From a virus (Duplodnaviria > Heunggongvirae > Uroviricota > Caudoviricetes): a DNA stretch of 6,214 bases. The notes below the pieces were generated by a model. The model was not told where the DNA came from, ran no database searches, and worked only from the letters and a program-made list of their open reading frames with translations. Made by a program: the position numbers and the translations under genes. Below, piece by piece: positions 1-6,214 of the stretch. Numbering within the stretch: position 1 is the first letter of the stretch; every line of letters begins with the position of its first letter. The stretch spans positions 1 through 6,214 of IMG/VR virus record IMGVR_UViG_2690316115_000003. The stretch is one strand, 5' to 3'.

Positions 1-46
1 CTGCCCGTTGACGGACTTCAGGGGAAAAACGAGTATTTTTAGTCAT
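1..46 (-). CDS. IS3-family transposase OrfA, first 15 codons only (partial, runs off the left edge)
   Basis: Minus-strand ATG at 46..44 preceded by AAGAGGTAAACAGG (GAGG Shine-Dalgarno). Translation is [15 protein letters not shown]..., which I recognise as the N-terminus of IS629/IS1203-type OrfA. Too short for the ORF track. Confidence 0.65.
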
Positions 47-100
47 CCTGTTTACCTCTTTCTCAGGAAGTTTAGTCTCCAGGATTCCCGGGGCGGTTCA
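1..100 (-). mobile_element. Terminal ~100 bp of an IS3-family insertion sequence (IS629/IS1203-like); the rest lies left of the window
   Basis: The reverse complement of 1..100 begins TGAACCGCCCCGGGAATCCTGGAGACTAAACTTCCTGAG, a 5'-TG terminal repeat of the kind IS3-family elements carry. About 54 bp inside that end a minus-strand ATG opens the OrfA-like reading frame. The boundary at 100/101 is placed from recall of IS629-type ends, not from an alignment. Confidence 0.65.
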
Positions 101-166
101 AATTGTAACCCACAGATTTGCAGAGTGGGCTGTGGGTGATTTCAACCGGCAGAAGGAGACAGTCCT

Positions 167-346
167 TTGCAACAAGTTAACCGCTGGTTCAAAGATCACT
201 ACGGAGTGCCCGTCAGAGTCATTCGTTGGGAACCGGAAACACAACGGGTTATCTACCTCCGCGAAGGCTATGAGCATGAGTGCTTCAGCCCGCTCGAACA
301 GTTTCGTCGTAAATTCAGGGAAATAGAGGTCGGTCATGAGCACTAA
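167..346 (+). CDS. Small hypothetical protein (59 aa, TTG start), translationally coupled to the downstream replication gene
   Basis: Reading frame open from 140 to the TAA at 344..346. TTG at 167 lies 7 nt after AAGGAGA (153..159). Translation (M)[58 protein letters not shown] looks like a real protein, unlike the Ser-rich frame of the listed 132..326 ORF. Its stop overlaps the ATG of the next gene by 11 nt. No ATG start exists, so this is uncertain. Confidence 0.35.
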
Positions 347-1277
347 ATTAACCGGCTATGTATGGGATGGTTGCGCTGCGTCAGGCATGAAGTTATCCAG
401 CGTGGCAATTATGGCCCGCCTGGCTGATTTCAGTAATGACGAAGGTGTGTGCTGGCCATCAATTGAAACCATTGCCCGCCAGATTGGCGCGGGGATGAGT
501 ACCGTCAGAACGGCTATCGCACGGCTGGAAGCAGAAGGCTGGTTAACGCGTAAGGCGCGTCGCCAGGGTAACCGCAATGCGTCGAATGTTTATCAGCTTA
601 ACGTTGCGAAGCTTCAGGCAGCGGCATTTTCTCAACTGTCAGATTCTGACCCGTCAAAATCTGACGCATCAAAATCTGACCCGTCAAAATTTGATGCGTC
701 GAAATCTGGCAAAAAAGCGGGTTTTCACCCGTCAGAATCTGGCGGGGATCCGTCAGTAAAATCAAAACATGATCCGTCAGATAAAAAACCTTCTCGTCCG
801 GACGCTTCGCAACCGGACACGCAGACGGATGAACAGGATTTTTTAACTCGCCATCCTGATGCGGTTGTATTCAGCCCTAAAAAGCGCCAGTGGGGAACGC
901 AGGATGATTTGACCTGCGCACAGTGGCTCTGGAAAAAAATCATCGCCCTGTACGAGCAGGCCGCCGAATGTGACGGCGAGGTGGTTCGTCCCAAAGAACC
1001 GAACTGGACAGCCTGGGCAAACGAAATTCGCCTGATGTGTGTGCAGGATGGTCGTACTCACAAACAAATCTGCGAGATGTACAGCCGCGTCAGCCGCGAT
1101 CCGTTCTGGTGCCGTAACGTGCTCAGCCCGTCGAAGTTGCGGGAAAAATGGGATGAGCTTTCCCTGCGCTTATCGCCGTCCGTCAGCACGCACACAGAAA
1201 AACGCGAAGACCCGTACTTCAAAGCCAGTTACGACAATGTGGACTACAGCCAGATCCCGGAAGGATTCAGGGGGTGA
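336..1277 (+). CDS. Phage replication initiation protein, O-like (N-terminal winged-helix DNA-binding domain, repeat-rich linker, C-terminal domain); resembles defective-prophage YfdO-type proteins
   Basis: ATG at 336 preceded by AGAGGT. N-terminus [73 protein letters not shown] is a typical winged-helix segment of lambdoid replication initiators. The central region encodes DPSKSD/ASKSD pentapeptide repeats over a DNA iteron array. Gene order (initiator, YfdN-like, methyltransferase) matches the CPS-53-type replication region as I remember it. Confidence 0.75.
   Translation: MSTKLTGYVWDGCAASGMKLSSVAIMARLADFSNDEGVCWPSIETIARQIGAGMSTVRTAIARLEAEGWLTRKARRQGNRNASNVYQLNVAKLQAAAFSQLSDSDPSKSDASKSDPSKFDASKSGKKAGFHPSESGGDPSVKSKHDPSDKKPSRPDASQPDTQTDEQDFLTRHPDAVVFSPKKRQWGTQDDLTCAQWLWKKIIALYEQAAECDGEVVRPKEPNWTAWANEIRLMCVQDGRTHKQICEMYSRVSRDPFWCRNVLSPSKLREKWDELSLRLSPSVSTHTEKREDPYFKASYDNVDYSQIPEGFRG
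638..790 (+). repeat. Iteron-like array inside the O-like gene: about 8 copies of a ~15-bp unit CCGTCA(A/G)AATCTGAC with internal dyad symmetry (GTCA...TGAC); putative phage replication origin
   Basis: Direct reading: five tandem units across 638..710 (GTCAGATTCTGAC, then CCGTCAAAATCTGAC, GCATCAAAATCTGAC, CCGTCAAAATTTGAT, GCGTCGAAATCTGGC), then after an A-tract spacer (GGCAAAAAAGCGGGTTTTCAC) further units at 729..743, 750..764 and 774..788, ending in GATAAAAAACC. In lambda the origin iterons lie inside gene O in the same relative position. Confidence 0.5.
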
Positions 1278-1768
1278 TCATGAGTCTTTTGAATGAAGTT
1301 CAGAAATTCATTGAAGCCCATCCGGGCTGTACTTCCGGAGACATTGCGGATGCTTTTGCAGGTTACTCACGGCAGCGCGTACTGCAGTCAGCAAGCAGGT
1401 TACGTCAGAGTGGGCGTGTGGCTCACCGTTGTGAAGGGGATACACGCAGACATTTCCCGCGTCTGACTGAGAGAGCGCAGGAGCCGGAACCACAACCAGT
1501 TCGTGAAACCAGACCTGTGCGCAATTTCTATGTCGTCACTAACGATCCCCGGGTGATTTTGTGCCTGACCCGCCAGGCTGAAGAACTGGAGTCAAGAGGC
1601 TTATACCGTCGTGCTGCAACCGTGTGGATGGCGGCATTCCGTGAAAGCCACTCCCAGCCAGAACGAAACAATTTTCTGGCACGTCGTGAGCGGTGCTTAC
1701 GGAAAAGCAGCAAGCGCGCTGCATCGGGTGAAGAGTGGTATCTGTCAGGGAATTACGTGGGGGCTTAA
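1274..1768 (+). CDS. Hypothetical prophage protein, YfdN-like (164 aa); N-terminal winged-helix-like segment, C-terminal PerC-like motif
   Basis: GTG at 1274 or, more likely, ATG at 1280 (AGGGGG just upstream); 164 aa from GTG matches the length I recall for K-12 YfdN. The stop at 1766..1768 overlaps the next start as TAATG. The C-terminal segment LTRQAEELESRGLYRRAATVWMAAF resembles the conserved core I associate with PerC/Pch-type small regulators (recall, not search). Confidence 0.6.
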   Translation: MIMSLLNEVQKFIEAHPGCTSGDIADAFAGYSRQRVLQSASRLRQSGRVAHRCEGDTRRHFPRLTERAQEPEPQPVRETRPVRNFYVVTNDPRVILCLTRQAEELESRGLYRRAATVWMAAFRESHSQPERNNFLARRERCLRKSSKRAASGEEWYLSGNYVGA

Positions 1769-2421
1769 TGAGTAATAAATATTGCCGGGCGCTGGTGGAA
1801 CTGCGGAACAAACCAGCCCATGAACTGAAGGACGTGGGCGATCAGTGGCGCACGCCGGATAATATTTTCTGGGGAATTAACACCCTGTTTGGTCCGTTTG
1901 TTCTGGATCTGTTCACTGACGGTGATAACGCCAAATGTGCCGCGTATTACACGGCGGAAGACAACGCGCTGGCGCATGACTGGTCAGAACGTCTTGCGGA
2001 GCTTAAAGGTGCTGCCTTTGGCAATCCCCCGTACAGCCGCGCCAGTCAGCATGAGGGGCAATACATCACCGGCATGCGTTACATCATGAAGCATGCCAGT
2101 GCCATGCGTGATAAAGGCGGGCGCTATGTTTTCCTGATCAAAGCTGCCACCAGCGAAGTGTGGTGGCCGGAAGATGCAGATCATATTGCTTTTATTCGCG
2201 GGCGTATTGGTTTTGAACTGCCTGCCTGGTTTATCCCGAAAGACGAAAAGCAGGTGCCAACAGGTGCTTTCTTCGCTGGTGCTATTGCTGTTTTCGACAA
2301 GACCTGGAAGGGACCGGCAATCAGCTACATCGGGCGCGATGAACTTGAGGCATGTGGTGAGGCATTTCTGGCGCAGGTTCGCCAGCAGGCGGAAAAACTG
2401 GTCAGGGAGATGGTGGCATGA
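1768..2421 (+). CDS. Phage DNA N6-adenine methyltransferase (Dam-like orphan methyltransferase)
   Basis: ATG at 1768 shares its A with the upstream TAA (TAATG). The ORF track starts the frame at GTG 1735, but the internal ATG is preferred. Catalytic-type motif NPPY is present (AAFGNPPYSR, near 2012..2035). Overall resembles phage Dam-family methyltransferases of lambdoid nin regions, including YfdM of CPS-53. Confidence 0.8.
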   Translation: MSNKYCRALVELRNKPAHELKDVGDQWRTPDNIFWGINTLFGPFVLDLFTDGDNAKCAAYYTAEDNALAHDWSERLAELKGAAFGNPPYSRASQHEGQYITGMRYIMKHASAMRDKGGRYVFLIKAATSEVWWPEDADHIAFIRGRIGFELPAWFIPKDEKQVPTGAFFAGAIAVFDKTWKGPAISYIGRDELEACGEAFLAQVRQQAEKLVREMVA

Positions 2422-2807
2422 AGCTAATACTGCCTTTTCCGCCCAGCGTGAACACGTACTGGCGACACCCCAACAAAGGGGCATTTGCTGGTAAGAGCCT
2501 GATAAGCGAGGCGGGGCGAAAATTTCAGAGCGCGGCGTGTGCCGCCATCATTGAGCAGTTACGTCGTCTGCCGAAACCAACGTCGGCACCTGCTTCAGTG
2601 GAGATCGTGTTGTTTCCTCCGGATAACAGGATCCGCGATCTGGACAACTATAACAAGGCGCTGTTTGACGCCCTGACCCACGCGGGTGTGTGGGAAGACG
2701 ACAGCCAGGTGAAAAGAATGCTGGTGGAGTGGGGACCGGTTATCCCGGAAGGGAAGGTCGAGATCACTATCAGTAAGTACGAGAAAACGGCGGGTGCAGC
2801 CGCCTGA
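2418..2807 (+). CDS. rusA: RusA-family crossover junction endodeoxyribonuclease (Holliday junction resolvase)
   Basis: ATG at 2418 overlaps the methyltransferase stop (ATGA), with GGGAGA 7 nt upstream. The 129-aa product MKLILPFPPSVNTYWRH...RDLDNYNKALFDALTHAGVWEDDSQV has the RusA hallmark layout, including the acidic RDLDN catalytic region. Confidence 0.85.
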   Translation: MKLILPFPPSVNTYWRHPNKGAFAGKSLISEAGRKFQSAACAAIIEQLRRLPKPTSAPASVEIVLFPPDNRIRDLDNYNKALFDALTHAGVWEDDSQVKRMLVEWGPVIPEGKVEITISKYEKTAGAAA

Positions 2808-2826
2808 TCAAGAGGAGAAACGAAGT

Positions 2827-3624
2827 ATGAATAATCTGATGGTCATTGATGGTATTGAAGTTCGTCGTGATGCTTATGGGCGTTACAGCCTGAACGATCT
2901 GCATAGGGCTGCTGGTTCTCTGGATAAGCATAAGCCTGCATTCTGGCTCCGCAATGAGCAAACTGAGCGTTTAATAAGCGAGTTGCAGATTTGCAACTCG
3001 GTCAATATAGAGCCAGTTAACGTTATTCGTGGCGGAAATAACCAGGGGACGTATGTCTGCAAAGAACTGGTGTATGCCTATGCAATGTGGATCAGCCCGT
3101 CATTCCATCTGAAGGTGATCCGTACTTTCGACATGGTAACCAGCGCACCGGAAAAATTATCCGGACAGGCTGCTGACAAGATGCAGGCTGGCGTGATCCT
3201 GCTGGACTTTATGCGCCGGGAATTAAATCTGTCTAACTCATCAGTGCTTGGAGCCTGTCAGAAGCTTCAGGAGGCTGTTGGCTTACCGAATCTGGCACCG
3301 CGCTATGCCATTGATGCTCCTGCTGACGCGCCTGATGGCTCAAGTCGCCCCACGCTGTCGCTGAGTGCACTGCTGAAGCAGTATGGTATCCGCCTGACGG
3401 CTAATCAGGCATATCACCAGATGGTGAAGCTGGGGATCGTTGAACAACGCGAACGATACAGCCGTACCGCGATTAACAACATCAAAAAATTCTGGTCGCT
3501 GACCGCGAAAGGCTGCATGTTCGGCAAGAACATCACCAGTCCTGCAAATCCGCGCGAGACGCAGCCGCATTTCTTCGAATCCCGATTTCCTGAGCTGTTA
3601 AAGCTGCTCGATACCGTTCATTGA
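2827..3624 (+). CDS. KilA-N domain-containing protein (N-terminal KilA-N DNA-binding domain, C-terminal domain of unknown function)
   Basis: ATG at 2827 with GAGGAG 8 nt upstream (the track's longer frame from 2794 lacks a Shine-Dalgarno). N-terminus MNNLMVIDGIEVRRDAYGRYSLNDLHRAAGSLDKHKPAFWLRNEQTERLISEL fits the KilA-N pattern. The C-terminal ~150 aa is not recognised. Confidence 0.7.
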   Translation: MNNLMVIDGIEVRRDAYGRYSLNDLHRAAGSLDKHKPAFWLRNEQTERLISELQICNSVNIEPVNVIRGGNNQGTYVCKELVYAYAMWISPSFHLKVIRTFDMVTSAPEKLSGQAADKMQAGVILLDFMRRELNLSNSSVLGACQKLQEAVGLPNLAPRYAIDAPADAPDGSSRPTLSLSALLKQYGIRLTANQAYHQMVKLGIVEQRERYSRTAINNIKKFWSLTAKGCMFGKNITSPANPRETQPHFFESRFPELLKLLDTVH

Positions 3625-3625
3625 G

Positions 3626-4621
3626 GTGACTGTGAGAGCACTACTGACCCCTGAAATTGCCCCGCGTATGGGGATCGTATTGTTCAGACCCGGTTCAGAG
3701 CTGATGCCCCTGTTTATGCAGGGGCGTGTCCTGCTGGAGCCTGAGCCGGAACGTTATTCATCTTTTGCCAGTGGTGCCGTTCCGGCAGCATCACAACCGC
3801 TGGCGGATGATCCTGCCGTTCGGGCCGTGTTCCGCAATGAGGCAGTGATCCGTCGTGCTGGTGGCGTGGAATGTCTTGAAAGCTGGTTACTTCGTGAAAA
3901 AGGTTGCCAGTGGCCTCATTCCGACTGGCACAGCGAGAACATGACCACAATGCGACACGCGCCGGGCGCAATCCGTCTGTGCTGGCACTGCGATAACCAG
4001 CTGCGCGATCAGTTCACGGAACGGCTGGAATCAATGGCAACGGATAACTGTGCCCGCTGGGTGTTGTCTGTTGTGCGTCGGGATCTCGGTTTTGATGACA
4101 GTCACGTTGTGACAATGCCGGAACTGTGCTGGTGGCTGGTTCGTAATGATCTGGCGGATGCCTTACCGGAAAGTGCAGCCCGTAAGGCACTGAGATTACC
4201 GAAGCCTGTTGTGCCGTCTGTCACCCGGGAGAGTGACCTTGTGCCTTCGGTTCCGGCCACCAGCATCATCCAGAATAAAGCGAAAAAGGTGCTGGCGCTG
4301 AAAGTGGATCCGGAGTCGCCGGAGTCTTTTATGTTACGCCCAAAACGTCGCCGCTGGGTTAACGAAAAGTACACGCGCTGGGTTAAGACGCAGCCGTGTG
4401 CATGTTGTGGAAAGCCTGCTGATGATCCCCACCACCTGATAGGCCACGGTCAGGGGGGAATGGGTACAAAAGCGCATGACCTCTTCGTGCTGCCTTTGTG
4501 CAGAAAGCATCACGACGAGCTGCATGCGGATACCGTGGCATTTGAAGAGAAGTATGGCTCCCAGCTGGAGCTGATATTTCGTTTTATCGATCGTGCGCTG
4601 GCAATAGGCGTGCTGGCCTGA
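3626..4621 (+). CDS. DUF968-like prophage protein (YdfU-like) with C-terminal HNH-type Cys/His cluster; putative nuclease
   Basis: GTG at 3626, 2 nt after the upstream stop; an alternative GTG at 3632 sits better behind GAGGTGA, so the start is uncertain by 2 codons. C-terminus QPCACCGKPADDPHHLIGHG...HDLFVLPLCRKHHDELH (about 4395..4524) has Cys and His spacing reminiscent of HNH/His-Me finger nucleases. Position between nin genes and Q is typical for this family. Confidence 0.65.
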   Translation: MTVRALLTPEIAPRMGIVLFRPGSELMPLFMQGRVLLEPEPERYSSFASGAVPAASQPLADDPAVRAVFRNEAVIRRAGGVECLESWLLREKGCQWPHSDWHSENMTTMRHAPGAIRLCWHCDNQLRDQFTERLESMATDNCARWVLSVVRRDLGFDDSHVVTMPELCWWLVRNDLADALPESAARKALRLPKPVVPSVTRESDLVPSVPATSIIQNKAKKVLALKVDPESPESFMLRPKRRRWVNEKYTRWVKTQPCACCGKPADDPHHLIGHGQGGMGTKAHDLFVLPLCRKHHDELHADTVAFEEKYGSQLELIFRFIDRALAIGVLA

Positions 4622-4638
4622 TTTTGTGGAGAAAGTTG

Positions 4639-5010
4639 ATGCGTGATATTCAAATGGTTCTTGAACGTTGGGGGGCATGGGTGGCAAATAATCACGAGGA
4701 TGTGGAATGGTCATCTGTTGCTGCAGGTTTTAAGGGATTAATTCCTTCGAAAGTAAAATCCCGCCCGCAATGTAGCGATGACGATGGCCTGATCATTAGC
4801 TCTGCGATGACAGTTCTTAAGAAAAAGGAACCGTATCAATACGAATTACTGGAAATGTATTATGTGTATGGGGTTACATTACGGGTATTGGGGGTAAAAC
4901 TGGGGATATCACTTAATCAGGTTGTTATCAGACTGCAGAAAGCTGAAGGGTTTATTGACGGTTGTCTGGCAATGTTGGGGGTATCTTTAGAAATTGATTG
5001 TTACATATAG
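4639..5010 (+). CDS. Late-gene antitermination protein Q, short phage-21/QuuD-type (123 aa)
   Basis: ATG at 4639 with GGAG 7 nt upstream (the track begins at 4624). N-terminus MRDIQMVLERWGAWVANNHEDVEWSSVAAGFKGLIPSKVKSRPQC closely matches what I recall of DLP12 QuuD-type Q proteins. Gene order (rusA ... Q) is canonical for lambdoid phages. Confidence 0.75.
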   Translation: MRDIQMVLERWGAWVANNHEDVEWSSVAAGFKGLIPSKVKSRPQCSDDDGLIISSAMTVLKKKEPYQYELLEMYYVYGVTLRVLGVKLGISLNQVVIRLQKAEGFIDGCLAMLGVSLEIDCYI

Positions 5011-5047
5011 TAATAAATTCAATCAAAGTAAATAATCATATTTTATT

Positions 5048-5084
5048 ATAACCTCCTGATGATACCTGTTCATTGGGAGGTTAT
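5048..5084 (+). promoter_or_regulatory. Shine-Dalgarno-sequestering hairpin in the 5' leader of the AT-rich orphan gene
   Basis: AUAACCUCC (5048..5056) is perfectly complementary over 9 bp to GGAGGUUAU (5076..5084), which contains the GGAGG Shine-Dalgarno of the ORF starting at 5086; the loop is 19 nt. Pairing was checked base by base. Confidence 0.4.
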
Positions 5085-5085
5085 T

Positions 5086-5703
5086 ATGGATAAAAATGTA
5101 GAGCATGTATTAGTTGATGCAATTGAAAATAAGCAATCTTTAACAGTCGTTTACTTAGGAGGGAGCCAGCCCGGAACATTAAGGAATATTTCTCCGATTA
5201 GTATAAATGGGGATAAATTGCGGGCAAGATGCCATAGTTCTGGAGCAGTAAAGGTTTTCAATCTTGGGAAAATACAGTTACCCAGTGACTCCTGCGCGGT
5301 ATCTATGCACTATGGAGATTTAAAAGTTAAAGCTTATGAGACGATGCAGAGCGTAAATGACAACTTTCATGCCCTTTATCCTGAAGGACGATGGGGTGTT
5401 GATTTTAATGAGCATCGCTTTGCTTTATTTGATTTTTTTAAAAACGGGAAACGAAAAAAAACGGCATTTATGGCAATTGAGTTCAGGGAAAGAGATGAAG
5501 AGAAAATAATAACAGGTGTAACAATTGATATTGGTATATCTGGAACAGTGATTTCTGAGAAGTCCCGAATCCCAAAAAGACGACCATGGGTAGTGGTTGG
5601 TCCCGAACACGGAGAATACAGTACTTATTCAACTTTGGACAAGGCTGCTACAGCGTTTTTTGAGAGGCTTTCGTTGATAGCATCCGGCCTGGAAGATAAT
5701 TGA
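5086..5703 (+). CDS. Orphan hypothetical protein (205 aa) in an AT-rich cargo block downstream of Q; function unknown
   Basis: ATG at 5086 lies 5 nt after GGGAGG; the in-frame ATG at 5059 has no Shine-Dalgarno. Hand-counted G+C is 19/60 for 5101..5160 versus 32/60 for 2401..2460. The frame stays open for 206 codons despite the AT richness. I recognise no family; the segment VVYLGGSQPGTLRNISPISINGDKLRARCHSSGAVKVFNLGKIQL has spacing loosely reminiscent of WYL/SH3-like beta-barrel domains (weak). Confidence 0.7.
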   Translation: MDKNVEHVLVDAIENKQSLTVVYLGGSQPGTLRNISPISINGDKLRARCHSSGAVKVFNLGKIQLPSDSCAVSMHYGDLKVKAYETMQSVNDNFHALYPEGRWGVDFNEHRFALFDFFKNGKRKKTAFMAIEFRERDEEKIITGVTIDIGISGTVISEKSRIPKRRPWVVVGPEHGEYSTYSTLDKAATAFFERLSLIASGLEDN

Positions 5704-5776
5704 TTTTATGTTTGGTATTCAGAGTTCGCCGTGCTTAAGAAAGTCAAGATTCTAAAAATACTGAATGAGCTACTTG

Positions 5777-5785
5777 TGTTATAAC
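5777..5785 (+). promoter_or_regulatory. Extended -10-like element TGtTATAAC (possible sigma70 promoter; weak -35)
   Basis: TGTTATAAC at 5777..5785 matches TGnTATAAT in 8 of 9 positions. The best -35 at 17-bp spacing (AATACT, 5757..5762) matches only 2 of 6. It sits about 50 nt upstream of a strong terminator, so any transcript would be short (about 65 nt). AT-rich DNA produces such matches by chance. Confidence 0.25.
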
Positions 5786-5833
5786 AAAAATGCTATTAGT
5801 GTGTTAAGAGTGGTTACTTCGCCACACAACTTA

Positions 5834-5858
5834 AACCCGCCACTGAGCGGGTTTTTTG
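5834..5858 (+). terminator. Rho-independent terminator
   Basis: AACCCGC (5834..5840) pairs with GCGGGTT (5847..5853) as a 7-bp stem with 5 G:C pairs and a 6-nt loop CACTGA, followed by a T-run (TTTTTTG). It lies 130 nt after the stop of the orphan gene. Confidence 0.75.
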
Positions 5859-5979
5859 TACCTGTAAACTTGGTGCAGTACAGTAAACACGCTGGTGGTC
5901 GTGAATACTGACTTTTTATCTTGCTGGCTTTTTAGACAAGAGTTATTGGTATGTCATGTTAACCAGAAGGGAAAAAGAC

Positions 5980-6177
5980 ATGCTAAAACAGCAAGATATG
6001 ACCGAAACCGCCAGAGTGGTGTTTAATGAATTGAGCGTCACCGAACCGGCGACAGTCGGGGAGATTGCGCAGAATACTTACCTTTCACGCGAACGCTGCC
6101 AGTTAATACTGACCCAGCTGGTTATGGCGGGTCTGGCAGACTATCAGTTCGGTTGTTACAGACGCCTTCCGCAGTGA
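5980..6177 (+). CDS. Small hypothetical protein (65 aa from ATG 5980; 73 aa from ATG 5956), helix-turn-helix/winged-helix-like
   Basis: Open frame 5956..6177. The second ATG (5980) is preferred because AAGGG lies 8 nt upstream. The segment TVGEIAQNTYLSRERCQLILTQLVMAGLADY has the look of a helix-turn-helix recognition region. G+C returns to about 50%. No family recognised. Confidence 0.45.
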   Translation: MLKQQDMTETARVVFNELSVTEPATVGEIAQNTYLSRERCQLILTQLVMAGLADYQFGCYRRLPQ

Positions 6178-6192
6178 AGGCTTTTTTATTTG
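6164..6192 (+). terminator. Rho-independent terminator overlapping the stop codon of the small HTH-like ORF
   Basis: GCCTTC (6164..6169) pairs with GAAGGC (6176..6181) as a 6-bp stem with loop CGCAGT, followed by TTTTTTATTTG. The TGA stop at 6175..6177 is inside the hairpin. Confidence 0.55.
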
Positions 6193-6214
6193 TGGTAAAT
6201 GGGCGGCTGGTGGG

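Follow-up and report, generated by a model that had tools for sequence, protein, structure and literature searches.

The question raised by this locus is where the Q antiterminator of a lambdoid prophage acts when another gene stands directly behind the Q gene. The stretch analysed, called the window below, is the DNA of 6,214 nucleotides that makes up positions 1 to 6,214 of the IMG/VR virus record IMGVR_UViG_2690316115_000003 (Caudoviricetes). It covers the early-right/late junction of a lambdoid prophage and all its listed genes lie on the + strand. A Q gene of a recognised antiterminator family is followed by an AT-rich cargo open reading frame (ORF; 5086-5703) and then by a short segment with promoter-like elements and a strong hairpin. 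The original prediction, which had been made from the letters alone, left two readings: either the cargo gene lies between Q and its site of action, or the true late promoter adjoins Q and the distal segment is a terminator of the cargo with a chance promoter match. The comparison reported here supports the first. Positions 5774-5857 probably correspond to the late-gene cassette (late promoter PR', Q-utilisation site qut and terminator tR') of a prophage of the Q21/QuuD family, parted from its Q gene by the cargo.

The evidence that carries this reading is that the block 5786-5860 travels with Q regardless of the cargo. For the comparison, 119 IMG/VR contigs were collected by the presence of GTTAAGAGTGGTTACTTCGCC. 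A Q-family gene precedes the block in each of the 108 loci, from IMG/VR or reference genomes, whose upstream sequence is long enough, and the block is always located between the Q gene and the late/lysis genes. The distance from the Q stop to the block is only 27-38 bp in 15 cargo-free loci and ranges from 525 to 3780 bp in the rest. The block directly follows Q in the cargo-free loci L001, L081, L114, L196 (Serratia) and L208 (Kosakonia), and the Q stop of LC567835 and PhiR5_1 lies only 38 bp before GCGGTCCGCAAAAAGTATGTCAGTATGTTAAGAGTGGTTACTTCGCCACACAGCTTAAACCCGCC. The same arrangement appears in megablast comparisons with phage genomes as split matches, which cover Q and then jump to about 5785-5802 of the window and onward. 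The intervening DNA of 101 loci belongs to 27 unrelated cargo clusters, mostly reverse-oriented. They include the PADLOC candidates PDC-S20 (KAP NTPase) and PDC-S60, an NsnA-like DUF262 protein with a Dcm methylase, an OLD-type ATPase-Toprim/HEC-04 protein with a Dcm methylase, lipoproteins, the nmpC porin (DLP12) and a GIY-YIG protein (phiP27). A scan of genome contigs with a 15-mer proved too short a probe, as most of its 120 hits were random; the true homologues that it returned came only from Enterobacter, Serratia, Trabulsiella, Kosakonia and one mis-binned contig. The latter (L168), a 3.6-kb contig binned in a Chitinophagaceae metagenome-assembled genome, carries an enterobacterial class-B block at near identity, and its assignment is probably a binning or contamination artefact. 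A full-text literature search for the block sequence returned no match.

These comparisons bear directly on the second reading, according to which PR' and qut would directly follow Q (5011-5085), the cargo would be Q-dependent and 5777-5858 would combine the cargo terminator with chance promoter matches. A PR' adjoining Q is the textbook layout, and the AT-rich spacer does contain several promoter-like matches, such as ATGATA-17-TATTAT at 5059-5087; none of those found in 5011-5060 is compelling. However, transcripts from the best promoter of the spacer would begin beyond the ATG of the cargo, and the 110 bp that follow the Q stop have nothing in common between cargo types. They often begin with a GC-rich hairpin, which in most loci is the terminator of a reverse-oriented cargo gene. 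Moreover, the block is kept with Q in phages that lack this cargo and abuts Q in cargo-free phages of E. coli, Serratia and Kosakonia. A late promoter at 5011-5085 is therefore unsupported and this explanation is regarded as very improbable.

If the promoter lies distal to the cargo, as the late-cassette reading holds, the cargo escapes Q control. No terminator was found between Q and the cargo gene and the cargo gene has none of its own, so that tR' would also end the cargo transcript. As it is located upstream of PR', the cargo would not be a Q-dependent late gene; it should be co-transcribed with Q from the early-right operon and perhaps be expressed from a promoter of its own as well. The GC content of the cargo ORF is 0.32-0.43, compared with 0.50-0.57 upstream; it is missing from cargo-free relatives and is annotated as a coding sequence in RefSeq. 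The spacer that precedes it can fold into a strong RNA hairpin, in which an anti-Shine-Dalgarno CCUCC pairs with the GGGAGG of the cargo gene (5075-5080) and the ATG at 5086 is buried. This hairpin may control translation, or may be a weak terminator or a processing site after Q.

The strong terminator that the original prediction placed at 5834-5858 is confirmed at 5833-5857 by folding, shuffling, conservation and annotation in a relative. Its stem pairs 5833-5840 with 5847-5854, its loop is CACTGA and its T-run extends from 5852 to 5857; its free energy is -13.7 kcal/mol (z = -4.4) and none of 200 shuffles folds equally well. The hairpin is kept in 37 distinct variants of the block, in which the changes are one-sided or wobble only. 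The same hairpin, annotated as a terminator, is found in Shigella phage SfV directly after TTGCAT-17-TAAGAT and AACGATGGG, which unmistakably reproduce PR' and the sigma-dependent pause element of lambda. Because it follows a lambda-type late promoter in SfV, the hairpin is taken to act as tR', and it thus appears to serve two unrelated Q families; between SfV and the Q21-type loci, a mosaic joint lies just upstream of it. A consensus promoter/terminator scanner listed neither this terminator nor the weak promoter described below in the window. It probably missed the terminator because it counts three A-T pairs that draw part of the T-run into the stem, so that the remaining tail holds too few T.

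The promoter proposed for the cassette has TAGTGT as its -10 element and a TTGTGT hexamer 17 bp upstream as a weakly supported -35. With a crude sigma-70 weight matrix, TTGTGT-17-TAGTGT scores 5.35, which places it in the top ~1% of window positions, and a scan of 57 variants of the block with such a matrix gives TAnnnT as the best and most consistent -10-like position. Conservation fits the same assignment. Among 53 distinct variants, the columns from T5802 through 5819 are 100% invariant and those beyond are conserved at 89-100%, except for the variable 5829. Upstream of 5802, only T-A at 5797-5798 and the A tract are conserved. The resulting TAnnnT, with free inner bases, reads as the pattern of a -10 element.

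This assignment agrees with the only start mapped in the homologous block of the DLP12 prophage of E. coli K-12. The published Cappable-seq data of MG1655 list a + strand primary transcription start site (TSS) at U00096.2:576452 (RRS 1.715, log2 enrichment 4.77). With an offset to NC_000913.3 coordinates that we take to be +777, this site becomes NC_000913.3:577229, i.e., position 4730 of the DLP12 locus (L128). In the DLP12 block this base is the A directly behind GTTAAG, and the last T of TAnnnT stands 7 nt before it. Consistent with this offset, conversion of the neighbouring TSS 576081 puts it exactly 7 nt downstream of a TATTAT hexamer. Around the start site, DLP12 and the window are identical in sequence from -7 through +13. 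At the density of the data set, the chance that a start falls on one given base is about 1 in 560, and no further + strand start is listed there between 576081 and 576907; the supplements of the SMRT-Cappable-seq study hold no entry near the K-12 site. The start predicted by homology is therefore A5809, and the terminated RNA (5809 to about 5857) would more likely be about 50 nt long than 65 nt. The original prediction was right to place the promoter-like element some 770 bp beyond the end of Q (stop at 5010); it is the distance from start to terminator, given as about 65 nt, that is probably shorter.

That prediction had read TGTTATAAC, which is indeed present at 5777-5785, as an extended -10-like element. 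In its exact form, this alternative takes TGtTATAAC as the extended -10, with a start near 5792, TAGTGT (+6..+11) as the pause element and an RNA of 65-67 nt. It has its attractions: the motif, seldom expected by chance, departs from an extended -10 only in its last base, TAnnnT has just the features that a pause element requires, and a geometry calculation makes the spacing between the palindrome that contains the motif and TAGTGT like that from the proximal subsite of the phage 21 Q-binding element (QBE) to its pause element. Several features nevertheless disagree with it. The final C replaces the highly conserved T at -7, and as a -10 the motif scores only 4.2 with the same matrix. Phages with other Q classes have GC-rich palindromes at that position, which are incapable of serving as a -10. 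Finally, the K-12 start lies 7 nt after TAnnnT, which makes TAnnnT the promoter -10, and none is listed upstream. The motif, being part of a palindrome, lacking the conserved final T, scoring lower and not being conserved in relatives, is thus probably not the -10 element, and this alternative appears unlikely. TAnnnT as the pause element was also considered more generally, with the promoter on the palindrome, on the A tract or further upstream; this would fit the Q21 geometry, but the positions upstream are not consistently -10-like and the K-12 start disagrees. Promoters based on an A-rich 'AAAAAT' motif upstream of the palindrome or on the A5 tract, again with TAnnnT as the pause, were set aside because neither is consistently -10-like and because of the same start.

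The palindrome that contains this motif, TGTTATAACA, is better viewed as the likely binding site of Q. The pattern TGNTATAAY, expected 0.29 times by chance in the window, is found twice because the palindromic site reads alike on both strands. The palindromes of the relatives are centred 21.5-22 bp before the invariant GTTAAGAG, which is the position of that of the window, and they vary with the helix-turn-helix of Q. Q proteins with ...DEKLIRIEIQ... are associated with GCGGTCCGC (39 loci), those with ...CSDGTIRKELQ... with GCGTACGC (30 loci) and those with ...MTFMALA...RLQKAEG..., which include QuuD, with TTTAC-N4-GTAAA (18 loci). The class of the window (class 'D', containing GISLNQVVIRLQKAEGF; ...ISLNQVVIRLQ...) goes with TGTTATAACA in 13 loci, and the Q of phiP27 (...ISHTQILKRLQ...) with GGAATTCC in one locus. 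Two cargo-free loci from the genome scan served as tests of the prediction: the Serratia Q (...NEARIRQQMQ...) is accompanied by GCGCTACGC and the Kosakonia Q (...ISHNHVSVRLQ...) by TGTAATTACA. The palindrome matches the helix-turn-helix class in 101 of 101 loci plus these two, giving seven palindromes for seven classes. In shuffles, a palindromic site with arms of 4 bp or more is expected at this position in about 7% of cases (about 0.07 per class). In megablast against phage genomes, homology to the other classes resumes at 5785/5786, directly after the palindrome.

This association without exception points to the palindrome as the likely Q-binding element. The simplest reading would be a class-specific unit that begins with the second half of Q, spans the cargo and ends with the palindrome. 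A small ORF located only about 180 bp downstream reassorts freely among palindrome classes, which indicates that recombination breaks linkage at the invariant block. The product of this ORF, a winged-helix protein (5980-6177), was itself considered as the palindrome-binding protein and rejected, as its alleles cross palindrome classes and the ORF is missing from about 40% of loci. In some cargo-free relatives, namely L208 (Kosakonia oryziphila) and L081, the candidate palindrome shares bases with the 3' end of the Q gene; TGTAATTACA of Kosakonia contains the TAA of Q, whose stop codon is thus part of the presumed binding site. A QBE of the phage 21 type (two direct TGAGCA repeats between -35 and -10, 8 bp apart, ending about -12) was not found in the window, where -32..-12 holds the palindrome and the A tract instead. 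The element AATGAGCT (5764-5771, -45..-38) matches the phage 21 subsite AATGAGCA at 7/8 positions; being present in a single copy and mutated in the class-D variant L070, it was judged a chance match.

The place at which Q would meet the polymerase is less clearly marked. A possible sigma-dependent pause module, TAAGAGTGGTTACTTCGC, is invariant in all relatives and has 13/18 gapless identities to lambda AACGATGGGTTAATTCGC (+1..+18), one of only two such matches in the window. This likeness occurs although the two Q proteins are unrelated. Its TAAGAG resembles the phage 21 pause element TAAGCT. As a guess, the pause would fall at C5820/G5821 (+12/+13). A weight-matrix scan gives CAACTT at +19..+24 as a second candidate.

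Several observations weigh against the late-cassette reading. The K-12 start signal is barely over the threshold (RRS 1.7 for a cutoff of 1.5), and the promoter is weak by consensus, with 3/6 matches in each hexamer. No A-N3-T hexamer, i.e., no canonical -10-like pause element, occurs at +1..+18, and TAAGAG overlaps the start site and has a G instead of a T as its last base. With its centre near -28, the palindrome lies farther upstream than the phage 21 QBE (-27..-12), and Q21 binds a direct repeat rather than a palindrome. No cargo type is common to two Q classes, so that physical linkage could explain part of the association between Q and palindrome. The palindrome of the window is also a fair extended -10, and a second start may lie near 5792. 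Lastly, the terminator is conserved but has no compensatory double changes; in a covariation test of both hairpins of the short RNA, all pairs are invariant or changed on one side only, which favours neither side.

The weak promoter and the absence of a canonical pause element would also suit another explanation, in which the block is a Q-independent conserved small-RNA gene or attenuator and the palindrome binds another regulator of the phage or of the host. RpoE control, which has reportedly been proposed for the lysis promoter of DLP12, would fit this explanation as well. Short RNAs of the PR' type can indeed be regulatory small RNAs, as illustrated by StxS (PMC7547250). However, across the hypervariable cargo the palindrome follows the helix-turn-helix class of Q and not the downstream winged-helix ORF, the block is always found between the Q gene and the late/lysis genes, and it has no match to a + strand Rfam family. 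This explanation is considered quite unlikely. A permissive scan with Rfam 15 gave nothing relevant; besides the spurious match of the replication-gene repeats described below, it returned only a sub-threshold match to STnc130 on the minus strand (30 bits for a gathering score of 55, E = 0.16).

In the late-cassette reading, the switch would work as follows. The sigma-70 RNA polymerase would start at about A5809 using TAGTGT. Without Q, the hairpin 5833-5857 would halt it and a transcript of about 50 nt would be released. Once made from the early-right operon, Q would bind the palindrome just upstream, probably as a symmetric pair, and would transfer to the polymerase held early in the transcript, at a guess near +12/+13. 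The polymerase would then read through tR' and the 6164-6190 terminator and go on to transcribe the genes for the methylase, the tRNAs and lysis. Being upstream of PR', the cargo would stay outside this control. For this phage, we infer the binding of Q to the palindrome, the location of the pause and the read-through caused by Q. A wider proposal, which is put forward only tentatively, is that short QuuD-like Q proteins (about 115-135 aa) bind the palindrome of their class ~28 bp upstream of the start as a symmetric pair, instead of a direct repeat, and load at an unusually early pause (TAAGAG, ~+12/+13). The Q helix and its DNA site might then bracket a hypervariable slot, which phages fill with defence systems and other cargo (27 types), and so keep these genes off the late transcript.

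Table 1. Features of the window, in order along the sequence.
Feature	Position	Strand	Remarks
Replication gene, DNA methylase, RusA	upstream part of window	+	in that order
KilAC-like gene, then DUF968/HNH gene (3626-4621)		+	upstream of Q
Q antiterminator gene	4639..5010	+	123 aa, Q21/QuuD family; Pfam PF06530, E = 1.3e-47; PHROG 79
RNA hairpin of the spacer	5042..5090	+	-23 kcal/mol, z = -5.5; 0/200 shuffles fold equally well
AT-rich cargo ORF	5086..5703	+	205 aa; PHROG 8498, function unknown; weak N-terminal WYL match
-35-like hexamer TTGTGT	5774..5779	+	3/6; 17 bp upstream of -10; overlaps palindrome; weak evidence
Perfect 10-bp palindrome TGTTATAACA	5777..5786	both	-32..-23; candidate Q-binding element
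A5 tract	5786..5790	+	-23..-19; fixed 11 bp before TGTTAAGAG; 77-100% per column
-10 hexamer TAGTGT (proposed)	5797..5802	+	family pattern TAnnnT: T 94%, A 100%, final T 100% (53 variants)
Possible pause module TAAGAGTGGTTACTTCGC	5805..5822	+	TAAGAG at -4..+2
Predicted transcription start A	5809..5809	+	homology to Cappable-seq TSS in K-12 DLP12
5' hairpin of short RNA	5810..5825	+	GUGGU/GCCAC, loop UACUUC; C to U in DLP12 keeps a G-U pair
Intrinsic terminator (putative tR')	5833..5857	+	8-bp stem with 5 G-C pairs, 6-nt loop, T6
TrmB-like winged-helix ORF	5980..6177	+	65 aa; first gene after tR'

The genes that surround the cassette are consistent with its position at the early/late junction (Table 1). 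Residues 8-81 of the window Q match the phage 21 Q structures 6JNX and 6P18 (E = 5.6e-10), and this gene lies upstream of the cassette on the same strand. Downstream, a second intrinsic terminator (6164-6190; GCCTTC-CGCAGT-GAAGGC and the T-rich tail TTTTTTATTT) overlaps the stop codon of the TrmB-like ORF, so that two serial terminators precede the methylase and late genes. Homologues of this ORF fall into two main alleles, of 65 aa and 67 aa, which differ in their central region and are distributed independently of Q and palindrome class. A 99.8% identical prophage of E. coli Z1323HEC0393 (L002) shows what follows the window: a DNA methylase, three tRNAs, a DUF6645 gene and then the holin, lysozyme and spanin genes, on the same strand and 4.3-6 kb downstream. 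The complete arrangement 4600-6214 was found in 73 of 5426 complete E. coli genomes. A tRNA search found none in the window itself. Within the replication-protein gene (630-790), iterated TCTGAC / CCGTCA(A/G)AA repeats may be origin iterons; an Rfam match of these repeats to mir-5880 is spurious (30.7 bits for a gathering score of 97).

Taken as such, the arrangement is the standard Q/PR'/tR' switch of the Q21/QuuD family, ordinary rather than new, and its layout will not surprise a specialist since it is already present in DLP12 of E. coli K-12. Since it lies upstream of the late promoter, the orphan cargo gene of this prophage should be expressed together with Q, early or in the lysogen, rather than in the late burst that depends on Q. 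In this common E. coli prophage family, cargo regularly occupies the gap between Q and promoter: a porin in K-12, candidate defence systems in other loci. A further outcome is a set of candidate Q-binding sites for seven specificity classes of Q, for none of which a biochemical characterisation was found as far as the literature could be traced. Two by-products, the candidate palindromic sites and the cargo hotspot, deserve follow-up.

Among known systems, phage 21 has a Q of the same family and the same order of parts (PMC6606751; bioRxiv 10.1101/651190), with a Q site just upstream of the -10, a start and a terminator within about 50 nt. In the OL657228 annotation, its PR' start is at 1974 and its terminator ends at 2023, which indicates that this Q family normally has a very short leader. 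The details differ. Q21 has 162 aa with a long loop in its helix-turn-helix, whereas the window Q has 123 aa and aligns over residues 8-81 only. The QBE of phage 21 is a direct repeat (ATTGAGCA, AATGAGCA) at -27..-12, whereas the candidate of the window is a 10-bp palindrome at -32..-23. The -35 is the consensus TTGACA in phage 21 and TTGTGT in the window, and the pause element TAAGCT lies at +2..+7 while the similar TAAGAG lies at -4..+2. The phage 21 cassette begins 7 bp after Q, that of the window about 770 bp after it.

DLP12 of E. coli K-12 has a Q of the same family and shares both layout and block with the window. In K-12, the order is quuD - nmpC (disrupted by IS5, on the other strand) - block - essD/rrrD/rzpD, and between -7 and the terminator the block differs from that of the window at a single position (C-to-T, +13). 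The gap between Q and block is 2.9 kb with a reverse-oriented porin gene in DLP12, whereas the cargo of the window is co-oriented with Q. The DLP12 Q is of helix-turn-helix class C, and its palindrome is TTTACGTACGTAAA where the window has TGTTATAACA. The holin gene directly follows the block in DLP12, whereas the winged-helix ORF, the methylase, tRNAs and another cargo gene come first in the phage of the window. In a passage of PMC7918800 that cites Rueggeberg 2013 and 2015, the lysis operon of this prophage is described as controlled by a Q-type antiterminator.

Other systems share parts of this layout. In phiP27, a GIY-YIG gene occupies the slot between Q and the block. SfV shares the terminator hairpin, the downstream small ORF and the methylase genes with the phage of the window, but its Q has 250 aa without BLASTP match among these loci, its PR'/AACGATGGG is lambda-like and no cargo lies between Q and PR' (106 bp). 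In lambda, the PR'/qut/tR' region likewise gives an early-terminated transcript, the 6S RNA of about 194 nt, unless Q acts. The lambda Q family is nevertheless unrelated to the window Q, the distance from its Q stop codon to PR' is at most about 45 bp and its pause element AACGAT (+1..+6) starts at +1, whereas TAAGAG starts at -4. Finally, StxS of Stx phages is a small RNA derived from the PR' transcript, which is produced constitutively and terminated at tR' in lysogens (PMC7547250). It is a 74-nt fragment processed from a 258-nt transcript and belongs to a different Q/PR' type, whereas the RNA of the window would be about 50 nt long.

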